NCBI GenBank assembly: GCA_965369605.1
Contig: CBDURE010000001.1
Coordinates: 781 to 64,780, forward strand
DNA length: 64,000 bases
Origin: an uncultured bacterium
GTDB lineage: Bacteria; JAJVIF01; JAGGVT01
Direction: 5' to 3'
In this document: piece after piece, positions 763-47,311 of the stretch
Layout of the letters: the number at the start of each line of letters is the position of its first letter
Position numbering within the stretch: position 1 is the stretch's first letter
Position numbers and translations under genes: made by a program
Notes under the pieces: model-generated
Told to the model about the DNA's origin: nothing
Databases searched by the model: none
The model's input: the letters and a program-made list of their open reading frames with translations, nothing else

Positions 763-1017
763 GACCTTCCTCCGTTATTGATAAGGATTAATGAATTTTA
801 AGGAAACCAAGTATACGGACTCTAAAATGTAAAGCAAGTGATTTAGTTAAGTATTTGGCGTTTTGATGCAATTCGTGGTGACAGATGAAACCTTTCCTCC
901 TATCTAATTTGCTACATAAATAACCAATATCGCGTTGTTATGGTAAAATCTATTTAGGGAAGATGGAGACAATTCTCCGGGAAAAATAACGATTTCCTTA
1001 TGACAGGGAGCGAGCAC

Positions 1018-4000
1018 ATGATCAAACCAACATTTTTTTCATTTCTGATCTTATTTGTGATTTTAATAATCACCGGATGCTCCTCCACTAAATCAACTCC
1101 GGTGATACCTGAAAATCCTCAAGCGGATATTAATTTACCCGCAACCGAACTTAACACAAGCGAATCATCCCGCAGTATCCTTGGCACATGGACACTCTCA
1201 ATAAACCACGAAACCCTCGAAGCTACAGTTGAACCCGACCGTACTCTCAACGCCCATCACAATGTTACAGGCATGATTCCTGACCCATTGATTACGATTA
1301 ACAGCTGGGACCCAATCGAGGAAATTGCCGATGTTGATATTCAGATTCACAATAATACCTGGATAAGTGTGTACGATGTCCGTCTCATCATCTACACCGA
1401 TGTTGCAGGTCACACACTCATCAACGCCGACAACTGGACTCCACTTTGGGATATTCCGGGAGGACAAATCGCAAACCCATTCAAGGCGTATGCAAAACAC
1501 GAAATTAATCGTGCTTACACAGGACTAATGTGGCACCAGGAGAATTTCCGGATTAAATGTCCAGGTTCGAATTACAGCGTCCAATTCGCAATTGATGTCA
1601 GCTATCCGGGTAATTGCGAGGAACCGTATGAGATCAGCAATTTCCAACAAGGCATCCTGTATGATGATATCGGAGCTGATGCTGTAGTTACAGTTGACGT
1701 TTTCGATTGGCAAAATGACGTGTCAGAGGTTTATCTTCATTGCCCTCAGATTACTGATGAACCTCAAACTCCATTTGAATATGATGTATTGAATCGATGG
1801 ATATTGAATCTAATCAATAATACTGGTGCTTTAGAAGGGGAATATATTGGATATCTGATTGCACGATCAGCAAACTCAAGCGCTTTGGCACTATATGATA
1901 GAGTTTCAATAATTGTAACTACTGGAACCGGTGGCCCAGATATACAACCACCAATATGGGATAGTACTGTCGGGATTGAAAGGGCGGTACCAAGATCCGA
2001 GGAGGTTGTGGTGGTTTGGGGAATTGCCACAGATGAACTAAGTCCACCTGTTGAATATTTGTTGTATATTGACACTGATTATAATCCATGGGATCAGGTA
2101 CCAGTAATTCACATCGACAACTCACCTTATACAGTTACCGGTCTTGAAAACGGCAGGGAATACTGGTTTGGCGTCAGATGTCGTGATAACGCTTCACCAC
2201 CCAATATTGATACAAACATTGTTGTTTTATCAGCAATACCCGATTCAGGTTTACCAATCGATCCTGTGATAATCGGCTCATATGAAAAAGCGATCTACAC
2301 GCCCTATGACTTGGCTTTCAGTGGTGATTTCGCGTTTGTTGCCGATGCCGGAGGACCAGTTAAATCTCTTGATATCAGTGATCCCTATTCTATTGAGATA
2401 ACGGGTGAAGTTGGTGTAACGGGAACCCGCAATATAGATGTAGATGAAGAATATGCCTATGCGGTTTCATGGGATAATCCAACAGATACATGGGAAATGT
2501 CTGTAATTGATATCTCAGATCCAACTGATATGCTTACGTTAGGATCATTGCAGGGATCCGGACGACCTTTTGATATCTCAGCCAGCAATGGAATTGTGTG
2601 CATAAGTGGAGAATTAGATGATACATACTATGGTTTTATGACAATTGATGCGTCTATTCCGAGTAATCCTCAAATTAAGTCGTTTTTTCATTTTGATTAC
2701 TGCGGAAGTCTTGAGGTTTCAGGGAACTATGTATATCTCGCTTGCTATCAAGATGGACTACGAATTTATGATATTTCGAATCCGGAAGCTCCTCAGTTTA
2801 TTAGCTCCTTAATCACGGGTAATAATTGCACTAATGTTGAATTAACACCAGGTTTTGCATTTATTATGGGAGGGTGGGATAGACATGGATATGTGGCAGT
2901 CATTAATATAAGTAACCCCCGGAATCCATTTGTTGTTGATGAAGCTTCATTCTTGAGTTATACCATGAATTTATCAGTCAGTATGTATGACATCACTATT
3001 GGTGATGATTTGTTATATGTTGGCTGGAATGACGCCTATGATGATGTTTTGTCGATTTATGATATAAGTAATCCGGGAGACATTGAATACAAAGGCGGTT
3101 TTGAAGGTCACCCTTTATATGGCTGGTCCCCAATCAAAGCTTACAGGGATTTTATGTATTGTTTAACTTCCAGCGGATTGAAAATTATTGATGTTCGAAA
3201 TCCAGTTAATCCAGAAATCGCAGGTGAGTTTAATGGCTATGATGCTCACAGAATCCGTACAGCAGGATCATACGCTTATACTATTGACATTTTTGATCAA
3301 ACCTTGTCGATATTTGATATCAGTGATCAGTTTCATCCCCATTATGTTAATGATATCAGCTTTGGATCTGGCGGTAGTACGTATTGGTACATTGGGATGG
3401 ATATTGCTGATGATAAAGTTTATATTGCCGATCCTGCAACCGGTTTGCTCATTATAGACATAACTTATCCAGTTAACCCTGTGATTATAAGTTTTTTAAG
3501 TTTATCAGAGTATGCAACGCAAATTATTGTTAAAGGTGACTATGCATATATTGTTTTAAGAGATTATGGGATGGCGATTGTTGACATCTCAGATCCTTAC
3601 AATCCGGAACTAATAGAAACTTATTTGCTTGATGGTTTAACGCACATAGATATCAAGGACAACCTGGTTTATTTAATACATGAGCAGGATTATCACGACG
3701 GTTTACACGTTGTTGATATAAGTGATCCACCCAATCCCCAATTATTGGGTATGGTGGAGGGTCTTTTATCGCCAAATGCGATTGGTATTTACAACGATTA
3801 TTGTTTTATTGGCTCCACTAACACTTTATATTGGACAGTGGATATTAGTGATCCTGCAAATCCAGTAATACTATCTGAGTATTCTGGTAGATCTTACTGC
3901 CGATATATCGAACCTGTATTTCCATATGCTTTTTTTGGTTCTTCCAGGTTCCAGGTGATGGATATTTCCACACCCGAATGGCCAACGCTTGTTAATGAAA

Positions 4001-4092
4001 TAAATATCGATTCATCAGATATTGAAATAAATGACAACATTGCTTACCTCGCTTGCGGGGAAGACGGCTTTAAAATCCTTGAACTATGGTGA
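1018..4092 (+). CDS. surface lipoprotein, family A conserved N-terminal module + C-terminal LVIVD-repeat beta-propeller region
   Basis: Signal peptide with lipobox (LIITGCSS). The conserved N-module (TPVIPENPQADINLPA..WTLSINHETLEATV..YDVRLIIYTD..NPFKAYAK..NCEEPY..DVFDWQNDV) is shared with 4086, 6992 and 40373. The C-terminal half carries ~40-aa repeats of the form GNYAYxA..GL.IxDISNPxNP, typical of the LVIVD repeat found in bacterial and archaeal surface proteins. An in-frame ATG at 1000 is also possible. The RBS-like GGGAG precedes 1018. Confidence 0.8.
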   Translation: MIKPTFFSFLILFVILIITGCSSTKSTPVIPENPQADINLPATELNTSESSRSILGTWTLSINHETLEATVEPDRTLNAHHNVTGMIPDPLITINSWDPIEEIADVDIQIHNNTWISVYDVRLIIYTDVAGHTLINADNWTPLWDIPGGQIANPFKAYAKHEINRAYTGLMWHQENFRIKCPGSNYSVQFAIDVSYPGNCEEPYEISNFQQGILYDDIGADAVVTVDVFDWQNDVSEVYLHCPQITDEPQTPFEYDVLNRWILNLINNTGALEGEYIGYLIARSANSSALALYDRVSIIVTTGTGGPDIQPPIWDSTVGIERAVPRSEEVVVVWGIATDELSPPVEYLLYIDTDYNPWDQVPVIHIDNSPYTVTGLENGREYWFGVRCRDNASPPNIDTNIVVLSAIPDSGLPIDPVIIGSYEKAIYTPYDLAFSGDFAFVADAGGPVKSLDISDPYSIEITGEVGVTGTRNIDVDEEYAYAVSWDNPTDTWEMSVIDISDPTDMLTLGSLQGSGRPFDISASNGIVCISGELDDTYYGFMTIDASIPSNPQIKSFFHFDYCGSLEVSGNYVYLACYQDGLRIYDISNPEAPQFISSLITGNNCTNVELTPGFAFIMGGWDRHGYVAVINISNPRNPFVVDEASFLSYTMNLSVSMYDITIGDDLLYVGWNDAYDDVLSIYDISNPGDIEYKGGFEGHPLYGWSPIKAYRDFMYCLTSSGLKIIDVRNPVNPEIAGEFNGYDAHRIRTAGSYAYTIDIFDQTLSIFDISDQFHPHYVNDISFGSGGSTYWYIGMDIADDKVYIADPATGLLIIDITYPVNPVIISFLSLSEYATQIIVKGDYAYIVLRDYGMAIVDISDPYNPELIETYLLDGLTHIDIKDNLVYLIHEQDYHDGLHVVDISDPPNPQLLGMVEGLLSPNAIGIYNDYCFIGSTNTLYWTVDISDPANPVILSEYSGRSYCRYIEPVFPYAFFGSSRFQVMDISTPEWPTLVNEINIDSSDIEINDNIAYLACGEDGFKILELW

Positions 4093-6893
4093 TTAAGAAA
4101 ATGAGAAAGTACTATTTTATAATTGTTATTTTTTTTCTTTTCCTCATTGGATGTTCCTCCGGCAAATCAACTCCGGTGATACCTGAAAACCCTCAAGCGG
4201 ATATTAATTTACCTGCAAACGAACTCAACACAAGCGAATCACTACACAGCATACTCGGCGCATGGACACTCTCAATAAACCACGAAACTCTCGAAGCGAC
4301 AGTCACACCAAACCGCTCACTTGAGAGACATTACAACGTGAAATATCTTATCCCAATTCCCGAAGTATCCATCAACACAATCTATCCAAACTATGTCATC
4401 GACGCGGATGTTACTCTCACGAATCCCTACACTTTCCCCGCCTACGATGTCCGCCTGATAATTTTCACGGACGAATACGGCCATTTCCTCGACAACGCGG
4501 ACGTCTGGACCGACCTCTATGACATCCCAGTCGGGCAGGACATCAACCCGTTCAAGGCATACGCAAAAGACCAACCCAATCGCATTTTCGAAGGTGAAAC
4601 ACAACACACCGAAAATCTTCTGGTTTTCAACCCACCCCCCGGTCACCCAATCCAGTTCGCGATAGATGCATCCTACCCCTGCAACTGCGAAGAACCTTAC
4701 GCCTTTGAGAATTTCCAACAAGATGTTTTACATCCGCATGTCGGAGCAAACGCTGCAGTCACTATTGACGTTCTCGACTGGCAAAATGATGTATCAGAGG
4801 TTTACCTGCAATGCCCGGAAATCACCAACGAACCTGAAACCCCGTTTGAGTTTGTTGCTTCAAACTCATGGAGCTTGAATCTGGTTAATAACACAGGTGC
4901 TCCGGTCGGTGAATATAACGCCATTATCTATGCGAAATCGTCCGGGTCAGGTAATCTTGAATTAATAGACAAGATAAAAATCAGGATATCAACAATTGGA
5001 ATCCCGCTTAGTCCGGTAAATGTAGGTGAATATCGTACACCTTTGGCATCATGCAAAGATGTTTGTATCCACAATGGTTATCTGTTTGCATTGGATTCCT
5101 ATTATGGTTTATATGTGTTAGACATTTCGAATCCTTCTGAACCGGATATTATCAGTAATCTTCCACTGGAACTTGCAGGCTTTTATAACAGCAAATGCAG
5201 ATTAGATTGTTCAGGTAATTATGCGCTCGCAGGTCCCTCACCTAATAATGGAGGTATCTACACTTATTATGTTGTTGATGTTTCTACCCCACGCCACATG
5301 GAAGTCGTGGGTTCAATTGAACTGAATTATGAAATGGTTGATATATCATACGATGGGAATTACGCGGTTTTGGGAGCGGATTCGGCATTACTAGTATTAG
5401 ACTTGAGCACACCCGGTAATCCTTTTGTGGCGGGAACGTTGGAGATACCATCAGAGTATCCCGTTTTACAGGGGAATTATGTTTATACAGATTCACAAAG
5501 GGATTATCAAAATATAATGTCAGTAGTTGATATAAGTGATCCTGGGAATCCTGTCGTTGTGAGTGAATATGATGTGATGGGTGACTTTTTTTCTTCAAAC
5601 TCCGTGGCTTTAGATGGGAACATTCTTTGCGTGGCAAGCAACACACGTCCTGAACCTGATCTTTCGTGTTATCTGGAAACTGTAGATATCAGTGACCCGC
5701 ATAATCCTGTCAGGTTGGATTATATCGAATTCACCGGATACGCTTTTGAAGAACCCGGTGATGAATTTCGAAGTGTTACTATTTCAGGCGGTTACGTTCT
5801 TTTAACCTGGGAATATTGGATTTCCTGGGATTTGTCTGTTTGCAAGATTCAGTTGCTGGACATCAGTAATCCAGGCTATATCCAGGAAAAAGGCTATTGC
5901 GTACAATCTTTTCTCAATGGCGCAATAGACGGTAATTTCTGTTATGTAGATAATTTTGGATTGGGAATTATAGATTTTAATGATCCTGATAATCTGCAAT
6001 ACAAAAGAGGGTTTTACGGGTTGGATGCTACTGAATTAAAAATAACTGATACAGATCTGGCTTATGTAGCAAACAGTTTTTATAACCTTTGCGTATTTGA
6101 TGTGAATAACCCGCAGAACCCACAAAAACTGAGCGATTATAATCTGCAATATTATAACATCAGAGCTTTAGATTCCTTTAATGATTATGTTTTTCTTTCC
6201 CTGTATGAACCCTCCTGGTATTCCCCAGTGCCTGACAGAATTCTGGTACTGGATGCATCCGATCCCTACTCGTTAAGTGAAACTACTTTTCTTGATGTGG
6301 ATTACCCAATATATGATCTAAATTGTAATGGGGAATATTTATTTGTAGCTTCAGATTGGGGACTTGTTATATTTGATGTTTCGAATCCTCAAATTTTGGG
6401 TCTGACAGGTTCTATCGCTACAGAAATGCTTAACAAAATAACTCAGCAGGATAATTATGTTTATGCTGTAAAGTGGGGATCTTATGGGAAATTCATAGTA
6501 TTTGATATTTCAGATCCCTCAAACCCATGGATTGCTAGTGAAACAGATTGTTATTGTCCATATGATCTTGAAGTTAAAGATAACCTTGCATTTCTTCTTG
6601 GAAAGGGTTATCTGAAAATCTACGATATCTCAACTCCAGCTAATCCGGTTGAAATTACTGAATTTGAACCGCTTGATGATTCTAATTATAGACTTACTGT
6701 CTCGGGGAATTTTATTTATCTTGGTAGGACAGGCGAAATATGGGATATTACGGATCTCCAAAACCCGCAGTATCTAAGCCAACTGGACATTCCTCAACAA
6801 ACTTTATTGAGATCTTATGATTATGAAATAGTCGATAATTATGCATTTTTAAGCTGCGGTGGATTCGGTCTGCAGGTAAACAAGTTGTGGTGA
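4086..6893 (+). CDS. surface lipoprotein, family A N-terminal module + LVIVD-repeat region (paralog)
   Basis: Start overlaps the stop of the upstream gene (ATGGTGA), suggesting translational coupling. Lipobox LIGCSS. The N-module is ~60% identical to 1018 and nearly identical to 6992. C-terminal repeats of the form xNYAxVxxxxxLxVxDxSxPxxP are LVIVD-like. Confidence 0.8.
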   Translation: MVIKKMRKYYFIIVIFFLFLIGCSSGKSTPVIPENPQADINLPANELNTSESLHSILGAWTLSINHETLEATVTPNRSLERHYNVKYLIPIPEVSINTIYPNYVIDADVTLTNPYTFPAYDVRLIIFTDEYGHFLDNADVWTDLYDIPVGQDINPFKAYAKDQPNRIFEGETQHTENLLVFNPPPGHPIQFAIDASYPCNCEEPYAFENFQQDVLHPHVGANAAVTIDVLDWQNDVSEVYLQCPEITNEPETPFEFVASNSWSLNLVNNTGAPVGEYNAIIYAKSSGSGNLELIDKIKIRISTIGIPLSPVNVGEYRTPLASCKDVCIHNGYLFALDSYYGLYVLDISNPSEPDIISNLPLELAGFYNSKCRLDCSGNYALAGPSPNNGGIYTYYVVDVSTPRHMEVVGSIELNYEMVDISYDGNYAVLGADSALLVLDLSTPGNPFVAGTLEIPSEYPVLQGNYVYTDSQRDYQNIMSVVDISDPGNPVVVSEYDVMGDFFSSNSVALDGNILCVASNTRPEPDLSCYLETVDISDPHNPVRLDYIEFTGYAFEEPGDEFRSVTISGGYVLLTWEYWISWDLSVCKIQLLDISNPGYIQEKGYCVQSFLNGAIDGNFCYVDNFGLGIIDFNDPDNLQYKRGFYGLDATELKITDTDLAYVANSFYNLCVFDVNNPQNPQKLSDYNLQYYNIRALDSFNDYVFLSLYEPSWYSPVPDRILVLDASDPYSLSETTFLDVDYPIYDLNCNGEYLFVASDWGLVIFDVSNPQILGLTGSIATEMLNKITQQDNYVYAVKWGSYGKFIVFDISDPSNPWIASETDCYCPYDLEVKDNLAFLLGKGYLKIYDISTPANPVEITEFEPLDDSNYRLTVSGNFIYLGRTGEIWDITDLQNPQYLSQLDIPQQTLLRSYDYEIVDNYAFLSCGGFGLQVNKLW

Positions 6894-6991
6894 CCAGGTT
6901 AAAAGACTAAAACAATTTTTCATTTTTTTTAAGGATGACGGAGGCAATTCTCCGGAAACTCCGGGATTTTGTTATGACAGGGAGCGGGAAA

Positions 6992-9289
6992 ATGATTAAA
7001 TCAACATTTTTTTCATTTCTGATCTTATTTCTGATTTTAATAATCGCCGGATGCTCCTCCACTAAATCAACTCCTGTGATACCTGAAAACCCTCAAGCGG
7101 ATATTAATTTACCTGCAAACGAACTCAACACAAGCGAATCACTACACAGCATACTCGGCGCATGGACACTCTCAATAAACCACGAAACTCTCGAAGCGAC
7201 AGTCACACCAAACCGCTCACTTGAGAGACATTACAACGTGAAATATCTTATCCCAATTCCCGAAGTATCCATCAACACAATCTATCCAAACTATGTCATC
7301 GATGCTGATGTTACTCTCACAAATCCGTATATTTTCCACGCCTATGATCTCCGGTTAATTATCTTCACTGACGAATACGATCATTTCCTAAACAACGCGG
7401 ACGCCTGGACTGACCTCTATGACATCCCAGACGGTCAGGATATCAACCCGTTCAAAGCATACGCAAAAGACCAACCCAACCGCATCTTCGAGGGAGAATC
7501 ACAACATACTGAAAATCTTCTGGTTTTCAACCCACCACCCGGTCACCCAATCCAGTTCGCGATAGATGCATCATTCCCAAATAACTGCGAAGAACCATAC
7601 GAAATTTCAGGCTTCACTCAGGATGACCTTTTCGATCAGGCTGGCGCAGTAGCTAATGTAGAAATAACGGTTAAATCATGGGCTGATAATCCATGTGATG
7701 TTTATCTATATTGCCCGATTATATGTGGTGCAGGATTACTTGAATTCAATCATATTGCGGATGATATCTACGGCGCAAACCTTGTTAATAATACCGGAGC
7801 ATATTCAGGCACTTATGAGGGTTTTATCGTTGCGTATTCCTACAAACACGCTCAAATTGCTCTATATAATGATGTGATGATATCAATTGAACCGAGTAAA
7901 AATGGTTGGGCTCGAACCTGGGGAAGCACAGGCAGTGAGGAGGGCAGCAAGGATGTCGTTGTTGATGATTTCGGCAATATCTATGTGTGCGGTTGGTTCG
8001 AAAATACTATCGACCTGGACCCCGGTCCGGGAGAGGATATCCACTTTTCGCTGGGGCAGTGGGATACTTATGTCAGCAAGTTTAATTCCGATGGCGGTTT
8101 TATCTGGGGGCGTACATGGGGCAGCCCCGGTGAATATGATACTCCAAGGGGTGTCATACTCGATAATGATGGTGGTGTGTATATATGCGGTGGATTCCAT
8201 TACACCGTGGATTTCGATCCCGGCCCCGGTGAAGCATTATTCACTGCTGAAAATAATAGCAACCGTGATGCTTACCTCAATAAACTTGACACTGATGGAA
8301 ATTATGTCTGGACAAAAACATGGGGTGGAATCGGTGGTTGGGATGTCGCTTACGATGTCCAGTTTGATGGTATCGATAAACTCTATGTAATTGGTTTATT
8401 CAATGAAACAGTGGATTTCGATCCGAATTCAGGCTATGACTCTCGCAGCGCTGAAGGAGAATATGATTCCTACCTTTGCCAGCTCGATATTCATGGAAAT
8501 TACTACTGGGTTCAGGCCTGGGGCGGTTCTCACATGACAGTTGCCACAAGCCTGGCATACGATGGAAATGCGAGCCTTTACATAACCGGATGGTTTGATG
8601 GAAACGTCGATTTTGATCCATCGAATGGTGTTGATCAACATGAATCCAGTGGAAGTTGGGATGCATACCTGAGTAAATTCAATACATCAGGTGATTTCGA
8701 ATGGGTCGGAGTTTGGGGCGATCCGGAACCTCAGCATGGTGTACGTGTTGACACTGACAGTTTTGGCAGTGTTTATGTGGCTGGTCATTTTTTTGGGACA
8801 GTTGATTTTGATCACGGTGCTGGAATTGATGTGCGAACGTCAAATGGTAACTTTGATTCATATGTAAGTAAATTAACACCCTTTGGTGAACAGGTCTGGA
8901 CTCTTGCCTGGGGCGCTGAAGAAAATGACTGTTGTTACGGGATAGGTTTGGATGAAAGCGATAACCTTTATGTGACAGGCTCCTTCAGGAGTACAGTTGA
9001 TCTCGATCCGGGTCCGGGCATGGAAGAAATAACATCGAATGGAAACGCAGACATCTTTCTAACACGATTCACGCCAGAAGGTGATTTTATCTGGTCACGC
9101 GCATGGGGTGGTGCAGGACACGACATGGGTTATGAACTCATCACCGACTGCAATGGAAATATTTTTGTTAATGGAAACTATTCCGATGTAGTGGATTTCG
9201 ATCCCGGACCCAATACAGAAGAACATACCTCAAACGGTCAACACGACGCATATATCATAAAACTACTGCCTAACGGTTATTGGGAATAA
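6992..9289 (+). CDS. surface lipoprotein, family A N-terminal module + C-terminal SBBP-type beta-propeller repeats
   Basis: The ORF is open from 6935, but the conserved MIKSTFFSFLILF... signal peptide starts at 6992. The N-module nucleotide sequence is 100% identical to 4086 over ~230 bp. The C-terminus has ~8 repeats of the form DxxGNIYVxGxFxxTVDFDPGPG...DAYLSKFNxxGxxxWxxxWG, typical of SBBP beta-propeller repeats. Confidence 0.8.
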   Translation: MIKSTFFSFLILFLILIIAGCSSTKSTPVIPENPQADINLPANELNTSESLHSILGAWTLSINHETLEATVTPNRSLERHYNVKYLIPIPEVSINTIYPNYVIDADVTLTNPYIFHAYDLRLIIFTDEYDHFLNNADAWTDLYDIPDGQDINPFKAYAKDQPNRIFEGESQHTENLLVFNPPPGHPIQFAIDASFPNNCEEPYEISGFTQDDLFDQAGAVANVEITVKSWADNPCDVYLYCPIICGAGLLEFNHIADDIYGANLVNNTGAYSGTYEGFIVAYSYKHAQIALYNDVMISIEPSKNGWARTWGSTGSEEGSKDVVVDDFGNIYVCGWFENTIDLDPGPGEDIHFSLGQWDTYVSKFNSDGGFIWGRTWGSPGEYDTPRGVILDNDGGVYICGGFHYTVDFDPGPGEALFTAENNSNRDAYLNKLDTDGNYVWTKTWGGIGGWDVAYDVQFDGIDKLYVIGLFNETVDFDPNSGYDSRSAEGEYDSYLCQLDIHGNYYWVQAWGGSHMTVATSLAYDGNASLYITGWFDGNVDFDPSNGVDQHESSGSWDAYLSKFNTSGDFEWVGVWGDPEPQHGVRVDTDSFGSVYVAGHFFGTVDFDHGAGIDVRTSNGNFDSYVSKLTPFGEQVWTLAWGAEENDCCYGIGLDESDNLYVTGSFRSTVDLDPGPGMEEITSNGNADIFLTRFTPEGDFIWSRAWGGAGHDMGYELITDCNGNIFVNGNYSDVVDFDPGPNTEEHTSNGQHDAYIIKLLPNGYWE

Positions 9290-17916: not shown

Positions 17917-20900
17917 ATGTTTAGATTTATCACTACCCTTTCTTTGGTTTTGATGCTTGTGGCAATGGTCACGGCATGTTCTTCAGGAGGCAGTATCATA
18001 CCGGATGGTCCGGATGGATTTTCAGCATCATCCCAAATGCCGATCTATCTTAATCCTTCGACTGAAGGTGTGAAATCCGGGACTGGTGCTCTGGGCGTTT
18101 ACCAGATTATCATCGACAATAGTTCGTTGAATTATGATGTGCTTCCGCTCAGGTATTCAAGTTTTGTGCCAAGAGAGTATGAAACGGATTTAACACTGGC
18201 ACTGACATCATCTTTCTGCAAGGATTGTTTCAAAGTAAACGGCATTACACTTAATGCCAGCGAAAATATCCTTCTGGAAGTTGGAGTAAAACACCCCTTT
18301 TCGCAGGTTACAAATTTGCCGGCACCGAGACCGCAGCGGCCTGACCTGCATGTATTCGATGTCCAGGGAATTGTTGTGGTTGAAGGCACAGCTGGTTTCC
18401 CACGATCAGGAATAACACTGAATCCTGATTTCGTGGTTAATCCTGAAGGCTTTACCAGTGTCTTTGACGCAGCGATTGACAGTATTGGCGGTTCGTTCAC
18501 AACCGCAGCAAACGCTCACCCTTTCAAGATTCTCAGTATGGGCAATTTTGTTAATCCGAGCGATGATATTGGCAACTATGATCCGAGCAGCCTGAACGGA
18601 TATCCAAATCCAAGCGGGATCATGAATCCAACCGGATTTAACGTAATGAAAGGCGGATGTGAATATTTCAATACAACATACGAATTGAAATCAGAGGGAG
18701 CATCAACAAGCTTCTTGTTTGCTGTTACCTGTTCATTCGGCGAATCCGCCAAAGGAGTGGGCTCCGATCTTCAAAAACGTGACAGTCCCATTTACCTGCT
18801 GCCGGCTTTCTCGAAGCCTGAAGCATGGAAGGTGGCTGTTGATATTGAAAACAACGATCTTGCGGATAATGATAACACCTCAACAGCTGATATTGTTATA
18901 CGCGTGGCGGACTGGCAGGAAGCATACGGCGCCACTCCTCCGAATCCGGCTTTTGACCCCTCTATCGATGTCGCGGTTGCTAGAAACACGCTTATCCAAG
19001 CAAGTGGAATCCACAATGTGGTGGTTGATATTCCCAGCTTGAACTTCATGGGTGATGACGCCATAGCTCAGAGTGAAATTCCCACAGGCGATTCCACCTA
19101 TCTGGTTCCAAGCACATACAGAATCACTGTCAACAACGATGAGTTCGCGAGTGAAATACCTAATCCGAACAATCCTCCACAGTTCTGGGGCCTCGTGGCG
19201 ATCCAGGATGACCTTGCCGGAACGGCAAATCCGAATGGGGGTATTGATCGTGAGCTGATCGTACCGGATTCCATATTCTCGATAAGTGATTACACAACCT
19301 ATCAGGTTTTTGGAATCAGCATTTTCCCACCGAATATTCCACCGACTCCGAACATTACATGTGTTGTTCCGGGTGGAGTTGAACCATTCCCAATCAACTC
19401 AGGCGACTTTCCTGATTTCCACGGGAATTCATCAATTGACTCGGATGGCGCAATTGTTGATTACGAGTGGGATTTCGATTATGACAACATAACTCATAAT
19501 TTCGCCGACCCCTCTGACCCTGAATATTACACTGATGCTGACATAACCGTTGCGGCTGATCCTCCGCCCCATAAGATGAACAATCTTCTGGCTGTTAACG
19601 CATCGAAGTATGTTGCCCTTCGCGTTACTGATGATTCAGCGGGCGCAACGACAAGTATCATGTATGTCGAGGTTGATATTGGTCCTAACCTGAATCCAAT
19701 ACCTGATTTGGGCATTACATTTTACGGTACCCTGTTTCCTGCCGCGCCATATACTTTCTATGAGGATGAGAGAGTAACACTGTTGCCGGGACCCTTGACA
19801 AGCGATGATGGCGCTATCGTAACCTATCAGTACGATTTCAGTTATGATGGCACGCAATTCTACGTTGAAGCCGCGAACACCAACGGTGATCCGATTCTCT
19901 CGCCTGTTCAATTTCAGGGAGCTGTAACTATGGCAACCAAGGTGAACGATAATGGACAACCGTACGCGAGCGCAATTGACTCGAAAGTGGTTACCGTTCT
20001 TGGAACTGCGGTGAATATACCGGTGCAGGTTTCCCTGGTGGGCGCTTCCGGAGTCGATTTGGTTAACGCAGGATTCAAATCAATCGCTGCTGGAAACACA
20101 ACTATTGCTTGCGCGTGGGCGCAGACCGGAAATATGGCTGACATTTTTTATTCAGTTAGTGTTGATAACGGTCTCACATGGGCCGCCCCTGCGATTCTGA
20201 ATACCACCGCAGTTGCAACCCAGCAGAGTGTGTCGCTTACTGTTAACCCGACAACTGATACGTACTATGCAGCCTTCGAGGATAACTCAGGAGGTCCTCT
20301 GGGTATTTCCTGGGCGATTTCCGATGCCAATTGCGCGGGATGGCAAGCGATCAATCAGGGACTTTTACCTCCTGTGGGAACGAATCCGGATGATCCATCC
20401 ATCGCTATTAATCCCACTACCGGCCAGGTCTATATTACATATATTGATACTCTGGCTGGTCAAAAAGAAGTAATCGTTCGGACATCGCTTGACAACGGCA
20501 CGACTTGGAATGTCCCGGTTGGCGGAGTCAACTCCGATAACACCAGCGACCGCACAGACCCAAGTATCACTTGGGATGCGACTGGCAATCTGGTTGGTGT
20601 CGCGTGGGATGATTACAGAAACAGCAGCGACTACCAGATTTATTTCAATTGGAGTAATGCTACTGCTACTGCATTCCAGGTGGCGGATGTTCAGGTTGTC
20701 CCAACTGCGGATGGCCAGAATGACCCATCGCTGGAATGTGATGCAGGAACATGGATTATGACTTACGATGATTTGTCCGCAACCACTGAACTTTATTTCA
20801 CATCAAGCGCTGATGGAATAACGTGGCTGGCTCCGGTTGATGTAACCGATAATACGGACAGTGTTCATAATAACTCCTCGCTCTGTATTGATGGCCTTGG

Positions 20901-21147
20901 AGTTTATTATGTTGCCACCAGAGACGCTCGCGAAACCGGAATGGCTTCCAGACCGGACATCTATATTTTCAAGAGTCTGGACAATGGAGTTACATGGATA
21001 CGCGGCATTTGCGCGAACGACAGAACTGGCACTGAGAATGCCTACAATCCGAATATTACCGGATTGCCGGGAGCGCTTGGTGGATTCATTGTGATGTATG
21101 AATCACCTGACGATACCGTTTTCTGCGCTGTCAGCAACGCGTATTAA
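17917..21147 (+). CDS. surface lipoprotein, family B conserved N-terminal module + PKD-like domains + C-terminal BNR/Asp-box (sialidase-like) repeats
   Basis: Lipobox VTACSS. The N-module shares LGVYQII..CKDCF..KHPF..DLHVFD..KPEAWKV..ADWQ motifs with 25383c and 33736. Two PKD-like segments are present (DGAIVDYEWDFDYD and DGAIVTYQYDFSYDG). Four BNR motifs, SxDxGxTW, are present (SVDNGLTWAAP, SLDNGTTWNVP, SADGITWLAP, SLDNGVTWIRG). Confidence 0.8.
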   Translation: MFRFITTLSLVLMLVAMVTACSSGGSIIPDGPDGFSASSQMPIYLNPSTEGVKSGTGALGVYQIIIDNSSLNYDVLPLRYSSFVPREYETDLTLALTSSFCKDCFKVNGITLNASENILLEVGVKHPFSQVTNLPAPRPQRPDLHVFDVQGIVVVEGTAGFPRSGITLNPDFVVNPEGFTSVFDAAIDSIGGSFTTAANAHPFKILSMGNFVNPSDDIGNYDPSSLNGYPNPSGIMNPTGFNVMKGGCEYFNTTYELKSEGASTSFLFAVTCSFGESAKGVGSDLQKRDSPIYLLPAFSKPEAWKVAVDIENNDLADNDNTSTADIVIRVADWQEAYGATPPNPAFDPSIDVAVARNTLIQASGIHNVVVDIPSLNFMGDDAIAQSEIPTGDSTYLVPSTYRITVNNDEFASEIPNPNNPPQFWGLVAIQDDLAGTANPNGGIDRELIVPDSIFSISDYTTYQVFGISIFPPNIPPTPNITCVVPGGVEPFPINSGDFPDFHGNSSIDSDGAIVDYEWDFDYDNITHNFADPSDPEYYTDADITVAADPPPHKMNNLLAVNASKYVALRVTDDSAGATTSIMYVEVDIGPNLNPIPDLGITFYGTLFPAAPYTFYEDERVTLLPGPLTSDDGAIVTYQYDFSYDGTQFYVEAANTNGDPILSPVQFQGAVTMATKVNDNGQPYASAIDSKVVTVLGTAVNIPVQVSLVGASGVDLVNAGFKSIAAGNTTIACAWAQTGNMADIFYSVSVDNGLTWAAPAILNTTAVATQQSVSLTVNPTTDTYYAAFEDNSGGPLGISWAISDANCAGWQAINQGLLPPVGTNPDDPSIAINPTTGQVYITYIDTLAGQKEVIVRTSLDNGTTWNVPVGGVNSDNTSDRTDPSITWDATGNLVGVAWDDYRNSSDYQIYFNWSNATATAFQVADVQVVPTADGQNDPSLECDAGTWIMTYDDLSATTELYFTSSADGITWLAPVDVTDNTDSVHNNSSLCIDGLGVYYVATRDARETGMASRPDIYIFKSLDNGVTWIRGICANDRTGTENAYNPNITGLPGALGGFIVMYESPDDTVFCAVSNAY

Positions 21148-25197: not shown

Positions 25198-25395
25198 GGG
25201 TGGTTAAAAGGGGACAGCGCCCTTTGATGTCGCCGATTATAAACGCTTTCGTGAACAACCTCGTTTACGTTAGACGCATTCTGCTCTCGCTTCCCTCACT
25301 ATCATGTCAACAAAAAAACAAAACCCGGAGCGTCTGTCGCACCCCGGGTGATTTTATTTTCTACCTTATTCCACCAACACTACTACGGCCCGAAT
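25198..25395. repeat. repeat family 1, copy A (~200 bp, terminator-containing, overlaps the 3' end of 25383c)
   Basis: ~85% identical to 31873-32055, with one ~40-bp indel. Contains the hairpin cccggggtgcg..cgctccggg followed by a T-tract (minus-strand sense). Confidence 0.6.
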
Positions 25396-28103
25396 CGTGC
25401 GATGAACACTTCGTAGCCATAAACATGGCTTAAATTTGTCTCGTTTGGATCACCCGGACCGAATGTGGCCGGACTTCTATATAAACCTGTTATTGCTATT
25501 GAATTATCCGGAAGCGCTGCGATGTCTCGAGAAGAATTATACTCTACTCCAGTGGCGGCGTGTTCAGCCCAATGGACTGTTCCATCGGGATTGTACCACG
25601 CGATAAACGTATCTGTTACATTTCCTGTGGTTAGAGTTCTCTCGTTCGGTTCGGATTGCCCGAATACGATTTCGTCCGTGAAATATCCTGTCACAACGCT
25701 TATATCTCCGAGAATTGTTGTGGCTGCGTACGCTGAATCAGAATTAACCCCACTGGCGCACTTTGCCCATATCAGTGCTCCGTCAGCATCATACCGGGCG
25801 ATGAAAATTTCAGCGGCACCAGCGGAGACAAGTGTTGTCTCGTTCGGGTCACCTTCACCGAAAATCGCCGAATCTGTGAAATATCCCGTTACTGTTACAG
25901 AATCATCCGATAGTGTTGTAATCCCGTGGGCTGAATCCGCAGTTGGGCCACCGGCTTTTTTTGCCCACATAAGTGTTCCGTCGGTATCGTACCTTGCTAC
26001 GAAAATATCCCTAACGCCGTCACAAACAAACGATGTCTGATTAGGCTCGCCCTGACCGAAAAATGCAGTGCCATAAAAATATCCAGTTACTACTGCCGTA
26101 CCGTCTGAAAGCGCTGTGACTGCAATGCCATCGTTACGTCCTGCCGATCCGCCAGCCCGTTTTGCCCAGGCAAGCGTTCCGTCCGGATTGTACTTTGCGA
26201 CAAAGATATCCCTGTATTCAAAGCCATTATAACCAGCGCCATTTGTCAGGCTGGTCTCGTATAGCTCGCCTTTACCGAATGTATATGTACCCGCAAACCA
26301 TCCAGTTGCAATTGTTGAATCATCTGAAAGCGCTGTGACCCCATTGCCATATGCTCGCCCGGTTCCACTGATTGCCTTTGCCCATTCAAGAGTGCCATCA
26401 GGATTATACCGTGCCACGAAAACACCATCGTTTGGATAGTTCTGCAGTGTAATCTGGTTTGGTTCTCCCTGTCCGAATGTGACTGCCCATCCGAAAATTC
26501 CCGTTATTACTACCGAATCGTCTGAAAGAGCTGTAATTCCAAAAGTGGTTTCCCAACCTGCCGCGCCTACGCGTTTCACCCAGAGAAGCGCGCCATCGGG
26601 GTCATACCGCGCGATGAAGATATCGTTCTGCCCGGCTGATCCCACAGTAGTTTCGTTCGATTCACCCATGGCAAATGTGAGATTGCTTCGGAATAATCCC
26701 GATACGACTGTCGAACTGTCCGAAAGCGCTGCGATTGCAAAGCTTTGATCATTATCAGGTCCGACGGCATTTTTCGCCCAGAAAATATTACCGGGCGGCA
26801 CAAATGGCTCTTCAACAACAGTCGCGTTGAAAACCTGATAAACAGCGTATTCAGGAATAATGTAATTATTAAGAAGCACTCCGTCAGGTGAGTCAATCAT
26901 GAAGTCTCGTGGTTCAATTTGCCAGTCAGAGCTTGGGATTCTTTCATCAGTTACTTTAACAAGCCCGGTATATTGCCCCGCTTCAAGGAGGTTTTCGTTT
27001 ACCACGGAAACATTAAAAACAAGGGGATCATCAGGTGTTCCCGTGCCTGAAACAGCCGTGTTTGCCGATGGAAGTGAGTTTGTCATGCCAGGGATTTCCA
27101 CCGAAACCGATGCTATATCACTGGACGCAAAAATGTTATCACCGGGGGCGTTTTCAAAATCATCAGGGGTGGCATAAACTGTCGCGTCTTGCTGCCAATC
27201 GTAAGCACGCACCTCTACATCAAATGGCGTAGTGTCATCATTCTCTACCCAGGTTGATCCAACCTCCGCGGGTCCCGGAGGAGACACATCCACTTTCCAT
27301 GCGGCCTTGCGATTGAACTCGGGATTGTAATATTTCGGAATCAATCGATTGGGTTTCTTCGCGCTAAAGCCATAGCCCATTGTAAGATACATGTTGAACA
27401 TGAGGATTTGATCGGACAGGTTGAATCCGGCATCGAAAGTTTGGTTCGCACCCATTATGAATTTGTTCCATGTGCTTGAGCCTGTTTCGCTGTCATTAAC
27501 GACAAGGAAATACGGCATCGCGGCTGTGTCATCCAGAAGGCTTGAAAGTTCGCTTGTATAACCATCCGCACCTGCGCATGCTCCGGCGTAAATGCTTTTA
27601 CCGGTAAGAGAATAGGTATCCGGTTCGATATTAATCGGCTGAATGAGAAGCGCCAAATCAAAGACATCAAGATCCAGGCGGTTTACCGCGGTCGGTGGCT
27701 TCAATGAATCGCCAGGGTCGAAAGGATGTTTGATATCGAATGTGATAATCACATTAAAATCCAAATCAATGCTCACACTTTCTAATTTTAAACAATCCGT
27801 GCAGGGGTTAATCGTGAAGAAAGCCATTCCACTCACAATGTAAGCCTCACCGATAGCCCCGGATCGTTTGGCAACAAGATTGGCGGTTAACTCATCCGGG
27901 TTGATTGCCAGCTCCCAGGCGCCCATCATTCCAATCGCGCTGATTATGTCCCCCGTATCAGAAAGGCCAATAATGCCAGGTGATAAACCGGAGGCATCAT
28001 CCTGCGTTCCAGCACTACTGCCCGGCGCAAGGGGATTATCACCGGATGAGCACCCCGCCAGCCATACAGCTATAACCAATAGGAGATACGTAAACTGTCT
28101 CAT
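25383..28103 (-). CDS. surface lipoprotein, family B N-terminal module + C-terminal SBBP-type beta-propeller repeats
   Basis: Lipobox LAGCSS. The N-module has GAWELAINPDELTANL..CTDCL..KHPFDPGD..DLDVFDLALL..YYNPEFNRKAAWKV..YDWQ. The C-terminus has ~9 repeats of the form DIFIARYxPDGxLxWAK..GG......GITxLSDxSxxVTGYF, typical of SBBP. Confidence 0.8.
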   Translation of the reverse strand: MRQFTYLLLVIAVWLAGCSSGDNPLAPGSSAGTQDDASGLSPGIIGLSDTGDIISAIGMMGAWELAINPDELTANLVAKRSGAIGEAYIVSGMAFFTINPCTDCLKLESVSIDLDFNVIITFDIKHPFDPGDSLKPPTAVNRLDLDVFDLALLIQPINIEPDTYSLTGKSIYAGACAGADGYTSELSSLLDDTAAMPYFLVVNDSETGSSTWNKFIMGANQTFDAGFNLSDQILMFNMYLTMGYGFSAKKPNRLIPKYYNPEFNRKAAWKVDVSPPGPAEVGSTWVENDDTTPFDVEVRAYDWQQDATVYATPDDFENAPGDNIFASSDIASVSVEIPGMTNSLPSANTAVSGTGTPDDPLVFNVSVVNENLLEAGQYTGLVKVTDERIPSSDWQIEPRDFMIDSPDGVLLNNYIIPEYAVYQVFNATVVEEPFVPPGNIFWAKNAVGPDNDQSFAIAALSDSSTVVSGLFRSNLTFAMGESNETTVGSAGQNDIFIARYDPDGALLWVKRVGAAGWETTFGITALSDDSVVITGIFGWAVTFGQGEPNQITLQNYPNDGVFVARYNPDGTLEWAKAISGTGRAYGNGVTALSDDSTIATGWFAGTYTFGKGELYETSLTNGAGYNGFEYRDIFVAKYNPDGTLAWAKRAGGSAGRNDGIAVTALSDGTAVVTGYFYGTAFFGQGEPNQTSFVCDGVRDIFVARYDTDGTLMWAKKAGGPTADSAHGITTLSDDSVTVTGYFTDSAIFGEGDPNETTLVSAGAAEIFIARYDADGALIWAKCASGVNSDSAYAATTILGDISVVTGYFTDEIVFGQSEPNERTLTTGNVTDTFIAWYNPDGTVHWAEHAATGVEYNSSRDIAALPDNSIAITGLYRSPATFGPGDPNETNLSHVYGYEVFIARFGP

Positions 28104-28236: not shown

Positions 28237-28322
28237 CAGCAATAATGCGGAAAGGCAACGATTCCGCTTTTTTAAATCCACCCTAACGCCAGTATTAATG
28301 CCCAACTAAAGGGTGTCTGACT
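28237..28322. repeat. repeat family 2, copy B
   Basis: Matches 22897-22984 (ccagcaataatgcggaRaggcaac...cttttttaaatc...taacRccagtRttaatgcccaa). Confidence 0.6.
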
Positions 28323-28341: not shown

Positions 28342-29013
28342 TTGCGCTCATGGCGAGTAGATAGTACACTCTCTTTTGTGAAGAAAGAGATGATAACCTT
28401 AGCCGATAAACAAATTAGAGATGCACTTCATCGTAAGACACTCCGCAAACACCATCGTGCGCCAAATACACTTGTAGTGGATGAATTGGGATTGATGCAC
28501 GGCAAATGTCGAGCAGATATTGCTGTTATTAATGGTCATCTCTTTGGATATGAGATTAAGAGCGATGAAGACACTCTTTCAAGACTTCCTGAACAAGTCA
28601 GAGCGTATTGTGAAGTCTTCGATCGCGTAACTGTTGTAGTCGGGAAGAAGCATGTGAATTTAGTCAGAAATATTGTCCCGGATTGGTGGGGCATCACTGT
28701 TGCCCAAAGAGGGGAACGAGGTGCGGTTAATTTTGAATCTGAAAGATCTGGTCAATTCAACAAGAATCTAAATCTCTTTTCAATTGCTCAGTTGTTGTGG
28801 AAAAGCGAGGTCAGTCAAATTCTTAGCGAATTGGGTGTACCATCGAAACTGTTACGGCAAAGACGTTCTGAACTCTACCGACTGCTCGTAGAGTTGATGA
28901 AACCTAATGACTTGCACCGCAAAGTTAGGGATTGCCTAAGGAGTCGTAAAAATTGGAGATGTCATCCACAACCTTCTCAATATGATGATTCGTACCCACC
29001 CATCTCCAAGTAG
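28342..29013 (+). CDS. PD-(D/E)xK nuclease-fold protein (sce7726/MmcB-like family)
   Basis: The motif block RADIAVINGHLFGYEIKSDEDT fits the D...E.K catalytic core of the PD-(D/E)xK fold, and the size is right for this family. The gene is convergent with the beta-protein gene and overlaps it by ~89 bp. Confidence 0.55.
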   Translation: MRSWRVDSTLSFVKKEMITLADKQIRDALHRKTLRKHHRAPNTLVVDELGLMHGKCRADIAVINGHLFGYEIKSDEDTLSRLPEQVRAYCEVFDRVTVVVGKKHVNLVRNIVPDWWGITVAQRGERGAVNFESERSGQFNKNLNLFSIAQLLWKSEVSQILSELGVPSKLLRQRRSELYRLLVELMKPNDLHRKVRDCLRSRKNWRCHPQPSQYDDSYPPISK

Positions 29014-40372: not shown

Positions 40373-43057
40373 ATGTATCGAAATTACCTGTTTCTTCTTG
40401 CTTTATGTTTTGTATATGCAATGTCATTTGGATGTTCATCATCCGCTACATCACCGGTAGCGCCATCTGCCCCATATATTGAGGATTTGTGCCAACTGCC
40501 TGTTTCGGATGTTTCTGATTCAGATCGAACGCTTTTGGGCATATATACTGCGTCATTCGATATCGAATCATTATCTGCCACTATCGAACCAGATCGTACA
40601 ACCACAGTTCATTACAATATCACGTCATGGCTGTCACCGGGAATTGTTGTGAACGGTTATAACCCGGTCAGCGGAATTGTCGATGTCGATTTCACAATTA
40701 CAAATCCGTATGCAATCAACGGCTACGATGTCCGGCTGATTATCTACACTGATGCGGTCGGGCATAAACTGATAAACGCGGATGACTGGACAGGTTTATA
40801 TGAACGCGCGGGCGGTTTGCCGATTAACCCGTTCAAGGCTTTCGCCAAAAATGAGGATATGCGCAGATTTGCAGGACTGGGTCATCATACGGAAAACCTG
40901 TTGATATACCTTCCGGGAGGAAATCCTAATGTAACATTTGCGGTGGACGCATCATATCCCGCCAACTGCGAGGAGCCATACAGCATTTCAAATTTCACTC
41001 AAACACGATTGAAAGATGAAACAGGCGCGACAGCGCATCTGACAGTCGATGTTCTTGACTGGCAGGATGATGTAAACAATGTGAATTTGTTCTGTCCGGT
41101 AATTACTTCGGTTACAATGGCAGGATTTACTTATAATGCATCTGATGAATACTGGGAAATGGATATAATAAACTACACAGGCGCATCAGCAGGTGAATAT
41201 ACCGGTTACATGATTGCAAAATCCGCGAATTCCGGCTCGCTTGTGCTATATGATGAAGTGATTATTACTGTCTCGCCCGGGAATGTTCCACTAAATCCAA
41301 CAATAATTGGTGGAATATACATGCTGTCCACATGCTTCGATGTCGCTGTTCAGGGCGATTACGCTTATGCGGTGGATTGGGACGGCGGCTTGAAGGTGAT
41401 TGACATTAGCAATCCGGTGAATCCATACATTGTCGGTGTTCTCGAAACGGATGATTATGCAATCGGTGTGGCTGTTGCGGGTAATTATGCCTGCGTTGCT
41501 GATCTGTGGGATGGTTTATATGTGGTTGATATCAGCGTACCGGAGCATCCGGTTGAAACAGGCAGAGCGAATACATCTGGAAATGCGCTGGCGGTCGCTG
41601 TCCAGGGTAATTATGCCTATGTCGCTGATGGGATCGGAGGACTGGCGGTTGTGGATTGCAGCAATCCAGCCGAACCGGTAATTACAGGAGTCGCACCAAC
41701 GGATGATGAAGCAAAAGGTGTTGTTGTTTCGGGCAATTATGCTTATGTCGCTGACCGTGACGGCGGTTTGAAAGTGGTTAACGTGAGCAATCCGAATGCC
41801 CCGTTCATTGAGGGTGAGATTGACAGTCCTGACGGTCTTGCAGCCGGTGTCGCGATTTCCGGAAACCTTGTCTATGTGGGATTTACCAGCGGTGGATTGA
41901 AAATTGTTGATGTCAGTACAAAGTCATCGCCCGTGATAATAGGTGAGGTTTCTATCGATGGTCTTGTTTACGGTGTCAAGGTTAACGGTGATTATGCCTT
42001 TCTTGCAAACACATATCGCGGAATGACTGTGGTTGATATCAGCGTTCCAACAAATCCGACAGAAGTTACTAATGAAGTAACTGATGGGAATGCACTTGAC
42101 CTGGCGATCAATGGTGACTATGCCTTTATCGCAAATGATGATAATGGCATAAAGGTTTTGTACATAGGTAACCCAACCAATCCTGACGTTGTTGGTGCGA
42201 TGCCAACAAACGGCGGTGGTTATGGCGTTACTGCAGATGGCAACTACGCATACCTCGCCGCAAAAGTCGGTGATTTGAAAATAATAGATATCACTGATGA
42301 TTTCAATCCTGAAATTGTTTCCAGCATTGATACATCCACCTGGGCTTACGATGTCACTGTTAGAGGCAATTATGCATATATCGCCAATTATTATTATGGA
42401 TTATCTGTTGCGGATATTTCAAATCCGCTTGCTCCTTTCATTGAAGGTACAGTGGACACCGATGGTTACGCGTGGGGTATTGATGTTCAGGGCGATTATG
42501 CTTATATCGCCGATTACAACGGTGGGCTTCAGGTTGTGAATATCAGTGTGCCATCAGATCCGCAGGTTGTTGCCGCGCTTGATACTGTCGGATACATAAA
42601 TGATGTTGTTGTGTCCGGCTCATACGCGTATGTTGCCGATGTCAATGGTAAAATGCACGTTGTCAATATAAGTAATCCAAACGATCCTTTTGTTGAAGGC
42701 TTTGTTAGTACTGGGAATTCCGCGAATGGAGTTTTCATATCCGGCAATTTCGTTTATGTTGCCGTGAACTGGAGAGGATTGCTTGTTGTTGATGTCAGCG
42801 TGCCAAACGCACCGGAAATCATTGGTGAGGCGGATACTGCTGGCACGGCGATTGATGTTGATGTCTCAGGGAATTTCGCCTATATCGCAAATGGCAGGGA
42901 TGGTTTTATCATTGTGGATATATCCGACCCAACTGACCCATTTGTCTTCAGTTCAATGCAAACCGATGGTTATGTCGATGATGTCGCAATAGTGGACAAC
43001 ATGGCATATCTTGCTGATGGCGGCAGCGGTTTCAAGGTTGTTAAATTGTGGCTATGA
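40373..43057 (+). CDS. surface lipoprotein, family A N-terminal module + long array of LVIVD repeats
   Basis: Lipobox SFGCSS. The N-module is shared (YDVRLIIYTDAVGHKLINADDWT..NPFKAFAK..NCEEPY..DVLDWQDDV). It carries ~14 repeats of the form GNYAYVADxxGGLxVVDVSNPxxP. Confidence 0.85.
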   Translation: MYRNYLFLLALCFVYAMSFGCSSSATSPVAPSAPYIEDLCQLPVSDVSDSDRTLLGIYTASFDIESLSATIEPDRTTTVHYNITSWLSPGIVVNGYNPVSGIVDVDFTITNPYAINGYDVRLIIYTDAVGHKLINADDWTGLYERAGGLPINPFKAFAKNEDMRRFAGLGHHTENLLIYLPGGNPNVTFAVDASYPANCEEPYSISNFTQTRLKDETGATAHLTVDVLDWQDDVNNVNLFCPVITSVTMAGFTYNASDEYWEMDIINYTGASAGEYTGYMIAKSANSGSLVLYDEVIITVSPGNVPLNPTIIGGIYMLSTCFDVAVQGDYAYAVDWDGGLKVIDISNPVNPYIVGVLETDDYAIGVAVAGNYACVADLWDGLYVVDISVPEHPVETGRANTSGNALAVAVQGNYAYVADGIGGLAVVDCSNPAEPVITGVAPTDDEAKGVVVSGNYAYVADRDGGLKVVNVSNPNAPFIEGEIDSPDGLAAGVAISGNLVYVGFTSGGLKIVDVSTKSSPVIIGEVSIDGLVYGVKVNGDYAFLANTYRGMTVVDISVPTNPTEVTNEVTDGNALDLAINGDYAFIANDDNGIKVLYIGNPTNPDVVGAMPTNGGGYGVTADGNYAYLAAKVGDLKIIDITDDFNPEIVSSIDTSTWAYDVTVRGNYAYIANYYYGLSVADISNPLAPFIEGTVDTDGYAWGIDVQGDYAYIADYNGGLQVVNISVPSDPQVVAALDTVGYINDVVVSGSYAYVADVNGKMHVVNISNPNDPFVEGFVSTGNSANGVFISGNFVYVAVNWRGLLVVDVSVPNAPEIIGEADTAGTAIDVDVSGNFAYIANGRDGFIIVDISDPTDPFVFSSMQTDGYVDDVAIVDNMAYLADGGSGFKVVKLWL

Positions 43058-47309: not shown

Positions 47310-47311
47310 AT

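Follow-up and report, generated by a model that had tools for sequence, protein, structure and literature searches.

A predicted all-beta N-terminal module shared by a large family of candidate cell-envelope lipoproteins in an uncultivated bacterial lineage

Modular lipoproteins with a conserved anchor-proximal module are a known design. In the BACON lipoproteins of Bacteroidota a lipobox and a tether are followed by an Ig-like beta-sandwich beside the lipid anchor, and many paralogues carry varied domains. This Bacteroidetes-Associated Carbohydrate-binding Often N-terminal domain may act as a spacer or in binding, and the module described below poses the same question. The SLH proteins and the CWB2 proteins of Clostridioides difficile likewise use one anchoring module across dozens of paralogues with unrelated domains. 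Here we analyze a stretch of 64,000 nucleotides (nt) from an uncultured bacterium of the GTDB lineage JAJVIF01; JAGGVT01 (assembly GCA_965369605.1, contig CBDURE010000001.1, positions 781 to 64,780 of the forward strand), referred to as the window. Seven of its genes encode proteins that share a conserved N-terminal module (N-module) of two homologous sub-types, A and B, followed by unrelated C-terminal regions, the heads.

By analogy of design, the BACON lipoproteins would be the closest counterpart of this family, followed by the SLH and CWB2 anchor-module families. There is, however, no sequence relationship to BACON, and no Pfam BACON model matches any N-module of the seven proteins. The present module is also 3 to 4 times larger, comprises several subdomains and belongs to a different, uncultivated lineage. 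SLH and CWB2 modules belong to established Pfam families and attach non-covalently to polymers of the cell wall, whereas the anchor is presumably a lipid here; no Pfam SLH or CWB2 model matches the seven window proteins. On present evidence the family is not a categorically new system.

The seven large open reading frames (ORFs), four of family A and three of family B, were confirmed from the ORF list and its translations. Profile hidden Markov models (HMMs) of the two modules, searched against all window ORFs of at least 80 amino acids (aa), match exactly these seven genes:

1000..4092, + strand: gene 1000, family A lipoprotein gene, 1030 aa (module HMM E 2e-116); lipobox Cys at aa 27; N-module aa 58-308 (nt 1171-1923); a stretch at about aa 320-415 that looks Fn3-like by eye only; LVIVD beta-propeller repeats up to the C-terminus (Pfam E 9e-43)
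4086..6893, + strand: gene 4086, family A lipoprotein gene, 935 aa; lipobox Cys at aa 23; N-module aa 54-303 (nt 4245-4994); C-terminal LVIVD propeller
6935..9289, + strand: gene 6935, family A lipoprotein gene, 784 aa counted from the first ATG (likely start 6992); lipobox Cys at aa 40; N-module aa 71-319 (nt 7145-7891); SBBP beta-propeller repeats at the C-terminus (Pfam E 2.8e-12)
17917..21147, + strand: gene 17917, family B lipoprotein gene of a divergent sub-type, 1076 aa (module HMM E 1.2e-72); lipobox Cys at aa 21; N-module aa 56-469 (nt 18082-19323); C-terminal PKD-like domains and BNR/Asp-box propeller
25383..28103, - strand: gene 25383c, family B lipoprotein gene, 906 aa (module HMM E 1.7e-167); lipobox Cys at aa 18; N-module aa 57-430 (nt 26814-27935); C-terminal DUF5122 / delta-60 / SBBP-like propeller repeats
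33736..35427, + strand: gene 33736, family B gene, 563 aa (module HMM E 1.4e-133); hydrophobic N-terminus in which Asp replaces the lipobox Cys; N-module aa 49-427 (nt 33880-35016)
40373..43057, + strand: gene 40373, family A lipoprotein gene, 894 aa; lipobox Cys at aa 21; N-module aa 52-301 (nt 40526-41275); C-terminal region with 13 LVIVD repeat matches (Pfam E 8e-130)

Genes 1000, 4086 and 6935 follow one another in tandem: the first two overlap by 7 nt, and a gap of 42 nt separates the second from the third. A first-pass annotation of this DNA, made from the letters alone, had placed two of the starts at 1018 and 6992; these are internal ATGs of ORFs 1000 and 6935, and 6992 is the likely start of the latter. 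Its division of the genes into two subfamilies is borne out by all-versus-all BLASTP. Family A members share 41-74% identity across an N-terminal stretch of about 280-340 aa (E 1e-65 to 1e-133). In family B, 25383c and 33736 share 41% identity over 394 aa (E 2e-80), and the divergent 17917 reaches about 24% with either of them (E 1e-13 to 1e-17).

As the first-pass annotation had noted, all seven begin with a signal peptide and six carry a lipobox Cys, the exception being 33736. We scored the lipobox as a PROSITE PS51257-type pattern, [LVI][ASTVI][GAS]-C, closing the N-terminal signal peptide, which is the combination that defines a bacterial lipoprotein. Beyond the window it is found in 17 of 18 A homologues, 80 of 94 B homologues and 93 of 112 representatives, and the residue at +2 of the lipobox sequences is Ser in every case. 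A tether of about 30-40 aa, rich in Pro, Ser and Asn, separates lipobox and module. In all 150 listed B representatives, which are 320-1,515 aa long, the module starts no later than about residue 63. The module proteins are presumably lipidated and may be exposed at the cell surface.

The two sub-types of the module differ in size. The length of about 250 aa first given for both holds for A, whereas the B module covers about 375-415 aa, including a B-specific insertion of about 100 aa that contains the YYNPEFNRK motif. Even so, A and B are demonstrably homologous at the level of their sequence profiles, as had been proposed. Comparison of 19 A and 91 B module sequences with hhalign, signal peptides and tethers trimmed, aligns 224 columns at a probability of 96.4% and E = 1.1e-9. 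The reciprocal profile search gives E = 5.5e-10, and reversed-profile controls fail (E 0.14-0.29, probability below 0.5%). The trimming and the failed controls together reject an origin of the similarity in signal peptides or composition. The aligned profiles place equivalent motifs in register: LLGxWT of A with LLGAYEL of B, NPY...YDVRLII with HPF...DLDVFDLALVI, V.DWQ with VYDWQ, and N.TGA..G.Y with NENLL..G.Y. In addition, a CxDC/CxxC pair otherwise typical of B is retained in the A-type homologues P0012, P0016, P0019 and P0021 and in three copies from the metagenome-assembled genome (MAG) AUK107, and these proteins therefore bridge the sub-types. Across B paralogues the invariant positions are C52, C55, H77, R93, D95, D100, N164, Y209, W220, D253-W254-Q255, N320 and D337; family A conserves the motifs NPFKA and NCEEPY.

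No named domain accounts for the module, in line with the first description. Neither Pfam nor NCBIfam matches the N-module of any of the seven proteins. Searches of the isolated modules against Pfam at E up to 10 return nothing beyond one spurious UQ_con match (E 0.004), and the module profiles match no Protein Data Bank (PDB) sequence at E up to 1. The module is accordingly a real domain family without a match in Pfam, NCBIfam or the PDB. AlphaFold predicts an all-beta structure for both sub-types, confidently for the B module of 25383c (mean per-residue confidence, pLDDT, 87.6; predicted TM-score, pTM, 0.88) and at moderate confidence for aa 45-305 of 40373, which hold its A module (pLDDT 76.7, pTM 0.52). 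The predicted module comprises a beta-barrel/sandwich subdomain followed by an Fn3/Ig-like subdomain, to which B adds its insertion. Fold searching with Foldseek retrieves generic beta-sandwich matches only, with query-normalised TM-scores of at most 0.21, and no enzyme-like fold is among them. Both sub-types weakly resemble VP37 of white spot syndrome virus (WSSV), which like the other envelope proteins VP26 and VP28 of this virus presents a beta-barrel on a membrane anchor.

Searched exhaustively as an HMM against 1.84 billion representative proteins (clustered at 50% identity), the B profile gives 1,284 matches at E up to 1e-3, of which 670 remain at a threshold of 1e-10 and 423 at 1e-30. 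Word-indexed searches find 21 clusters with a single A query, 46 with the A profile and 109 for B. The few named matches among these are MAG proteins of unclassified 'bacterium' and one labelled Nanoarchaeota. In these searches the best identities are about 55-60%. Many B members consist of the module alone, at about 404-435 aa, and one such stand-alone member, P0093, is an isolated gene on 17 contigs. A scan of 185,579 species genomes with a single peptide pattern, which for that reason misses divergent members such as P0130 (from a Gly/Ala-rich protein), places the B module in only two of them. One is AUK107 (JAGGVT01), with 19 loci; the other is a single contig of a MAG labelled Nanoarchaeota, and this contig is probably mis-binned.

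The supplementary tables of PMC9213671 describe AUK107 (PB_MBMC_061) as a 3.2 Mb genome, 91.7% complete, from Auka vent sediment in the Pescadero Basin, with the GTDB assignment p__UBP7_A; one of them gives the class as 4484-113. These tables are our source for its taxonomy; literature searches for AUK107 and JAGGVT01 returned no main-text mention. The retrieved loci of AUK107 hold at least 30 B genes and 6 A genes (at least 36 copies), often adjacent to each other.

Two metagenome contigs offer a side-by-side view of one locus. L021 (14777-16737) and L027 (11029-13111) have the same genes downstream, namely Fumerase_C, DUF2007 and Fumerase. At the corresponding position L021 carries two family genes, of 735 and 745 aa, that extend C-terminally past the module, and L027 carries genes of 423 and 431 aa, the size of the module alone; P0050, the neighbour of the 431-aa gene, is module-only. 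This suggests that the C-terminal part was gained or lost at an orthologous locus.

The heads are diverse. LVIVD repeats, reported three times in the window by the first reading, are present in genes 1000, 4086 and 40373, where PF08309 scores 143.8, 103.7 and 422.4 bits, above the Pfam gathering threshold of 20.2 bits; the matches (E 3e-30 to 8e-130) lie in the C-terminal regions only. The same proteins score 62.2, 34.9 and 73.4 bits with the choice-of-anchor B model (TIGR04312), below its cut-off of 100. Their heads are thus related to the choice-of-anchor B family, but by the curated cut-off the proteins do not belong to it. The choice-of-anchor families of NCBIfam are named for domains that are found with alternative anchoring signals in other phyla. 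SBBP repeats had been assigned once to each family. They are found in 6935, while the C-terminus of 25383c matches the propeller models DUF5122 (Pfam E 5.8e-14) and delta_60_rpt (NCBIfam E 3.8e-16) and is homologous to that of 6935 (BLASTP 6e-25). With the LipL53-type SBBP lipoprotein model (NF047494, Lepto_SBBP_lipo) 6935 reaches 113.4 and 25383c 57.4 bits against a cut-off of 400. The heads of four window genes therefore belong to the repeat classes of the LVIVD/choice-of-anchor B and SBBP/LipL53-type propeller surface proteins, but those families describe heads rather than the N-module, and full-length model scores fall below their cut-offs.

Two further heads are less clear. For 17917, proposed to combine PKD with BNR/Asp-box, the family matches, PKD_4 (E 0.0035) and BNR_2 (E 9e-5), lie below curated cut-offs, but four Asp-boxes of the form SxDxGxTW are readable in the sequence and there is a weak ColH PKD match (E 0.014). 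The C-terminus of 33736, about 140 aa, has no Pfam or NCBIfam match, and the Ig-like domain suggested for it finds a weak counterpart in one PDB chain (9ncf_S, E 0.002). Across the family the range of heads is far wider. The AUK107 copies carry PKD, fn3, GH85_C, Peptidase_C11, Peptidase_M23, PQQ propeller, RGI_lyase, LGFP, PD40, SBBP, DUF5122 and BNR_2 (Pfam), and other homologues add FG-GAP, PrcB_C, LRR, beta-helix and TolB-like domains, for a total of about 20 or more Pfam families. Since LVIVD is found behind A as well as B modules, the claim that unrelated C-terminal modules swap between the two N-types holds at the level of the family.

Direct-repeat and sliding-window identity analysis reveals mosaicism at the 5′ ends of the tandem copies:

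4149..4686, + strand: gene-conversion tract, counterpart 7049-7586

Genes 4086 and 6935 are 96-100% identical in nucleotide sequence over 4149-4448 / 7049-7348, then 86-92% identical up to about 4686, where identity drops to about 50% while still within the N-module. A second tract, with 90-97% nucleotide identity, links genes 1000 and 6935 in the signal-peptide region (1015-1135 versus 6989-7109). This mosaic of high-identity tracts among tandem copies points to gene conversion at the 5′ end. The Vlp/Vsa proteins of Mycoplasma and the lipoprotein paralogues of Borrelia resemble it in having tandem paralogues with near-identical, recombined 5′ ends. They differ in combining short conserved leaders with repetitive variable regions for antigenic variation, whereas the conserved part of the present family is a large folded domain and no switching mechanism was found. 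We considered programmed cassette switching of the Rhs/CdiA or antigenic-variation type and rejected it: the paralogues have diverged, and the breakpoints fall inside the module, off the boundary between module and head, which argues against a cassette-switching device.

The genomic surroundings of the family were compared by clustering the non-family ORFs of the window and 20 further loci (about 350 kb). The only recurrent neighbours are TPR proteins (4 loci) and glutamate dehydrogenase. Four metagenome contexts annotated with Pfam are heterogeneous and share no common operon. With neighbours non-recurrent and contexts heterogeneous, no co-located sorting or secretion machinery is seen.

What the module does has to be read from these observations. 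Because it sits strictly after the lipobox, has a beta-sandwich architecture, carries a wide range of heads and lacks partner genes, we infer a pedestal or interaction role. We favour, with about as much confidence as doubt, the view that it is a membrane-proximal pedestal or interaction module of a large set of paralogous cell-envelope lipoproteins specific to this lineage; a role in anchoring or as a pedestal is plausible. Each protein consists of a lipobox signal peptide (Cys-Ser), the Pro/Ser/Asn tether, the all-beta module and a variable head or none. The pedestal would hold interchangeable heads (beta-propellers, PKD/Ig, LRR, peptidases, glycan-active domains) at a fixed position in the envelope. 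Given the many invariant polar and aromatic residues, it probably has one conserved contact as well, whether with itself or with a component of the envelope. The family would grow by tandem duplication, by fusion and loss of C-terminal domains and by 5′-end gene conversion. Two observations weigh against a purely supporting function: a passive spacer would need fewer invariant polar residues, and the stand-alone module proteins demonstrate that the module has an independent role, perhaps in binding a ligand instead of giving support. Invariant residues and stand-alone forms, in arguing for a specific contact, make a ligand-binding or targeting domain the main rival. Such a domain, of carbohydrate-binding module (CBM) or adhesin type, would dock the heads onto one common substrate, for example a polymer or the surface of another cell, with the stand-alone copies as simple binding proteins. 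The frequency of stand-alone module lipoproteins fits this, and the invariant aromatic and polar residues (YYNPEFNRK..W, YDWQ and DGYT in B; NPFKA, NCEEPY and DWQ in A) would fit a binding site. The structural matches, however, are generic, at 5-15% sequence identity, and a strict N-terminal site beside the lipid anchor suits a pedestal better than a domain that has to reach a substrate. We regard this rival as a possibility, though a doubtful one.

The first-pass annotation had instead proposed a dedicated sorting, anchoring or pro-domain system, similar in logic to T9SS cargo, PEP-CTERM or Rhs/CdiA designs. As the recognition or carrier domain of a lineage-specific export, sorting or surface-assembly system (for example surface translocation of lipoproteins, or an S-layer-like lattice), the module would explain its fixed N-terminal position, strong conservation, very many paralogues and restriction to one lineage, as well as the variety of cargo carried by a single module type; the weak likeness of both sub-types to WSSV VP37 would also agree. 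Yet no neighbouring gene family is conserved across the loci, and models for T9SS, PEP-CTERM and other sorting signals have no match in the seven proteins (Pfam and NCBIfam, E up to 0.01). A folded beta-sandwich domain of 250-400 aa is far larger than the known short sorting signals, and stand-alone forms have no cargo to sort or chaperone. We therefore consider a sorting role unlikely. The Rhs/CdiA comparison also fails: the supposedly constant parts have diverged among the paralogues (41-74% identity), and propellers, Ig domains and enzymes take the place of C-terminal toxins. Rhs/CdiA polymorphic toxins are marked by a near-identical constant region, a demarcation motif, a variable toxin at the C-terminus and a cognate immunity gene downstream, and here no small downstream gene recurs in the window and the 20 loci. 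A broader form of the idea, to which we give a similarly low probability, makes the module the common handle of an undescribed envelope-assembly system in 4484-113/UBP7_A, by which dozens of lipoproteins per cell would be exported to the surface, or assembled there, by way of a conserved contact. Through this contact the module could either self-assemble into a lattice or dock on a dedicated translocon whose genes lie elsewhere in the genome. A pro-domain or intramolecular chaperone, removed after export, is very improbable. It would suit those members in which the module precedes a peptidase head (M23, C11), but a pro-domain is superfluous for the propellers, PKD and LRR domains that make up most heads, some modules stand alone, and the boundary between module and head has no evident conserved cleavage motif.

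Several intergenic elements lie close to family genes. An 8-nt tandem repeat, GTTAGCA(G/A), is present in 7.6 copies at 40194-40254, 119 nt upstream of the family A gene 40373. It recurs with 5-13 copies in intergenic regions of AUK107 (L007 1-43, L019 9264-9370, L014 9413-9557 and L020 1000-1106), once between an A gene and a B gene. Being conserved across the lineage, it may form an array of binding sites for a regulator or act as a promoter element prone to slippage. Other intergenic tandem repeats form a second group, with units of 15-25 nt, up to about 20 copies and the core GGAATGACA / TGTCATTCC. They occur in the window at 44840-44905 and 58881-58920 and in AUK107 at L003 9550-9597, L005 5752-5808, L009 8895-9249 and L019 6794-7091, twice about 100 nt upstream of family A genes. 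Finally, two pairs of intergenic segments are 78-86% identical: 25207-25390 versus 31903-32047, directly past the 3′ ends of 25383c and 32040, and 22898-22944 versus 28236-28282, near 22886 and 28342. One of these elements contains a terminator-like GC-rich hairpin followed by a T run, and the pairs may represent a dispersed terminator or REP-like element.

The remainder of the window encodes an RHS fragment, an aspartyl protease with PDZ, two GT2 glycosyltransferases, TPR proteins, two glutamate dehydrogenases, a trio of HTH-M78, Beta_protein and DUF6932 genes, a DUF4062-NACHT-TPR STAND NTPase, quinone-biosynthesis genes and a histidine kinase. Some of these merit description in their own right:

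9653-11050: lipoprotein-like ORF of 465 aa after the RHS ORF, no family match
11076-12926, - strand: ORF of 616 aa with GTG start, RHS repeats and a Cys-rich C-terminal region
28925-31865, - strand: three consecutive genes, Beta_protein (PF14350), HTH + Peptidase_M78 (ImmA/IrrE-like) and DUF6932
32040-33305, - strand, and 38834-40192, + strand: glutamate dehydrogenase paralogues, 5.5 kb apart
35573-38635, + strand: STAND NTPase of 1020 aa, DUF4062 + NACHT/nSTAND1 + TPR
44971-50741, + strand: quinone-biosynthesis cluster of UbiD, UbiE-type methyltransferase, UbiX-like flavoprotein, UbiA prenyltransferase and MqnC/CofH-like radical SAM enzyme

The RHS-repeat ORF is unrelated to the family and, judged by its domain content, looks like the C-terminal module of an Rhs protein, either orphaned or truncated at its N-terminus. 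The NTPase resembles anti-phage or signalling STAND proteins in its predicted architecture. The trio at 28925-31865 may be a mobile or defence-associated cassette inserted between two family B genes. A third glutamate dehydrogenase homologue adjoins a family B gene in AUK107 (L018 8343-9620).

The module defines a sizeable protein domain family without a name, of which sub-type B alone comprises at least 1,284 representative clusters at 50% identity. Judging roughly from the number and size of its genes, the family accounts for a few per cent of coding capacity in at least one genome of an uncultivated phylum. A family model would annotate hundreds of proteins currently labelled hypothetical. 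Its strict position beside the lipid anchor makes the module a tractable structural target for understanding lipoprotein display outside the model phyla. For the lineage itself, the family is probably a major route by which binding proteins and hydrolases are presented at the cell envelope.

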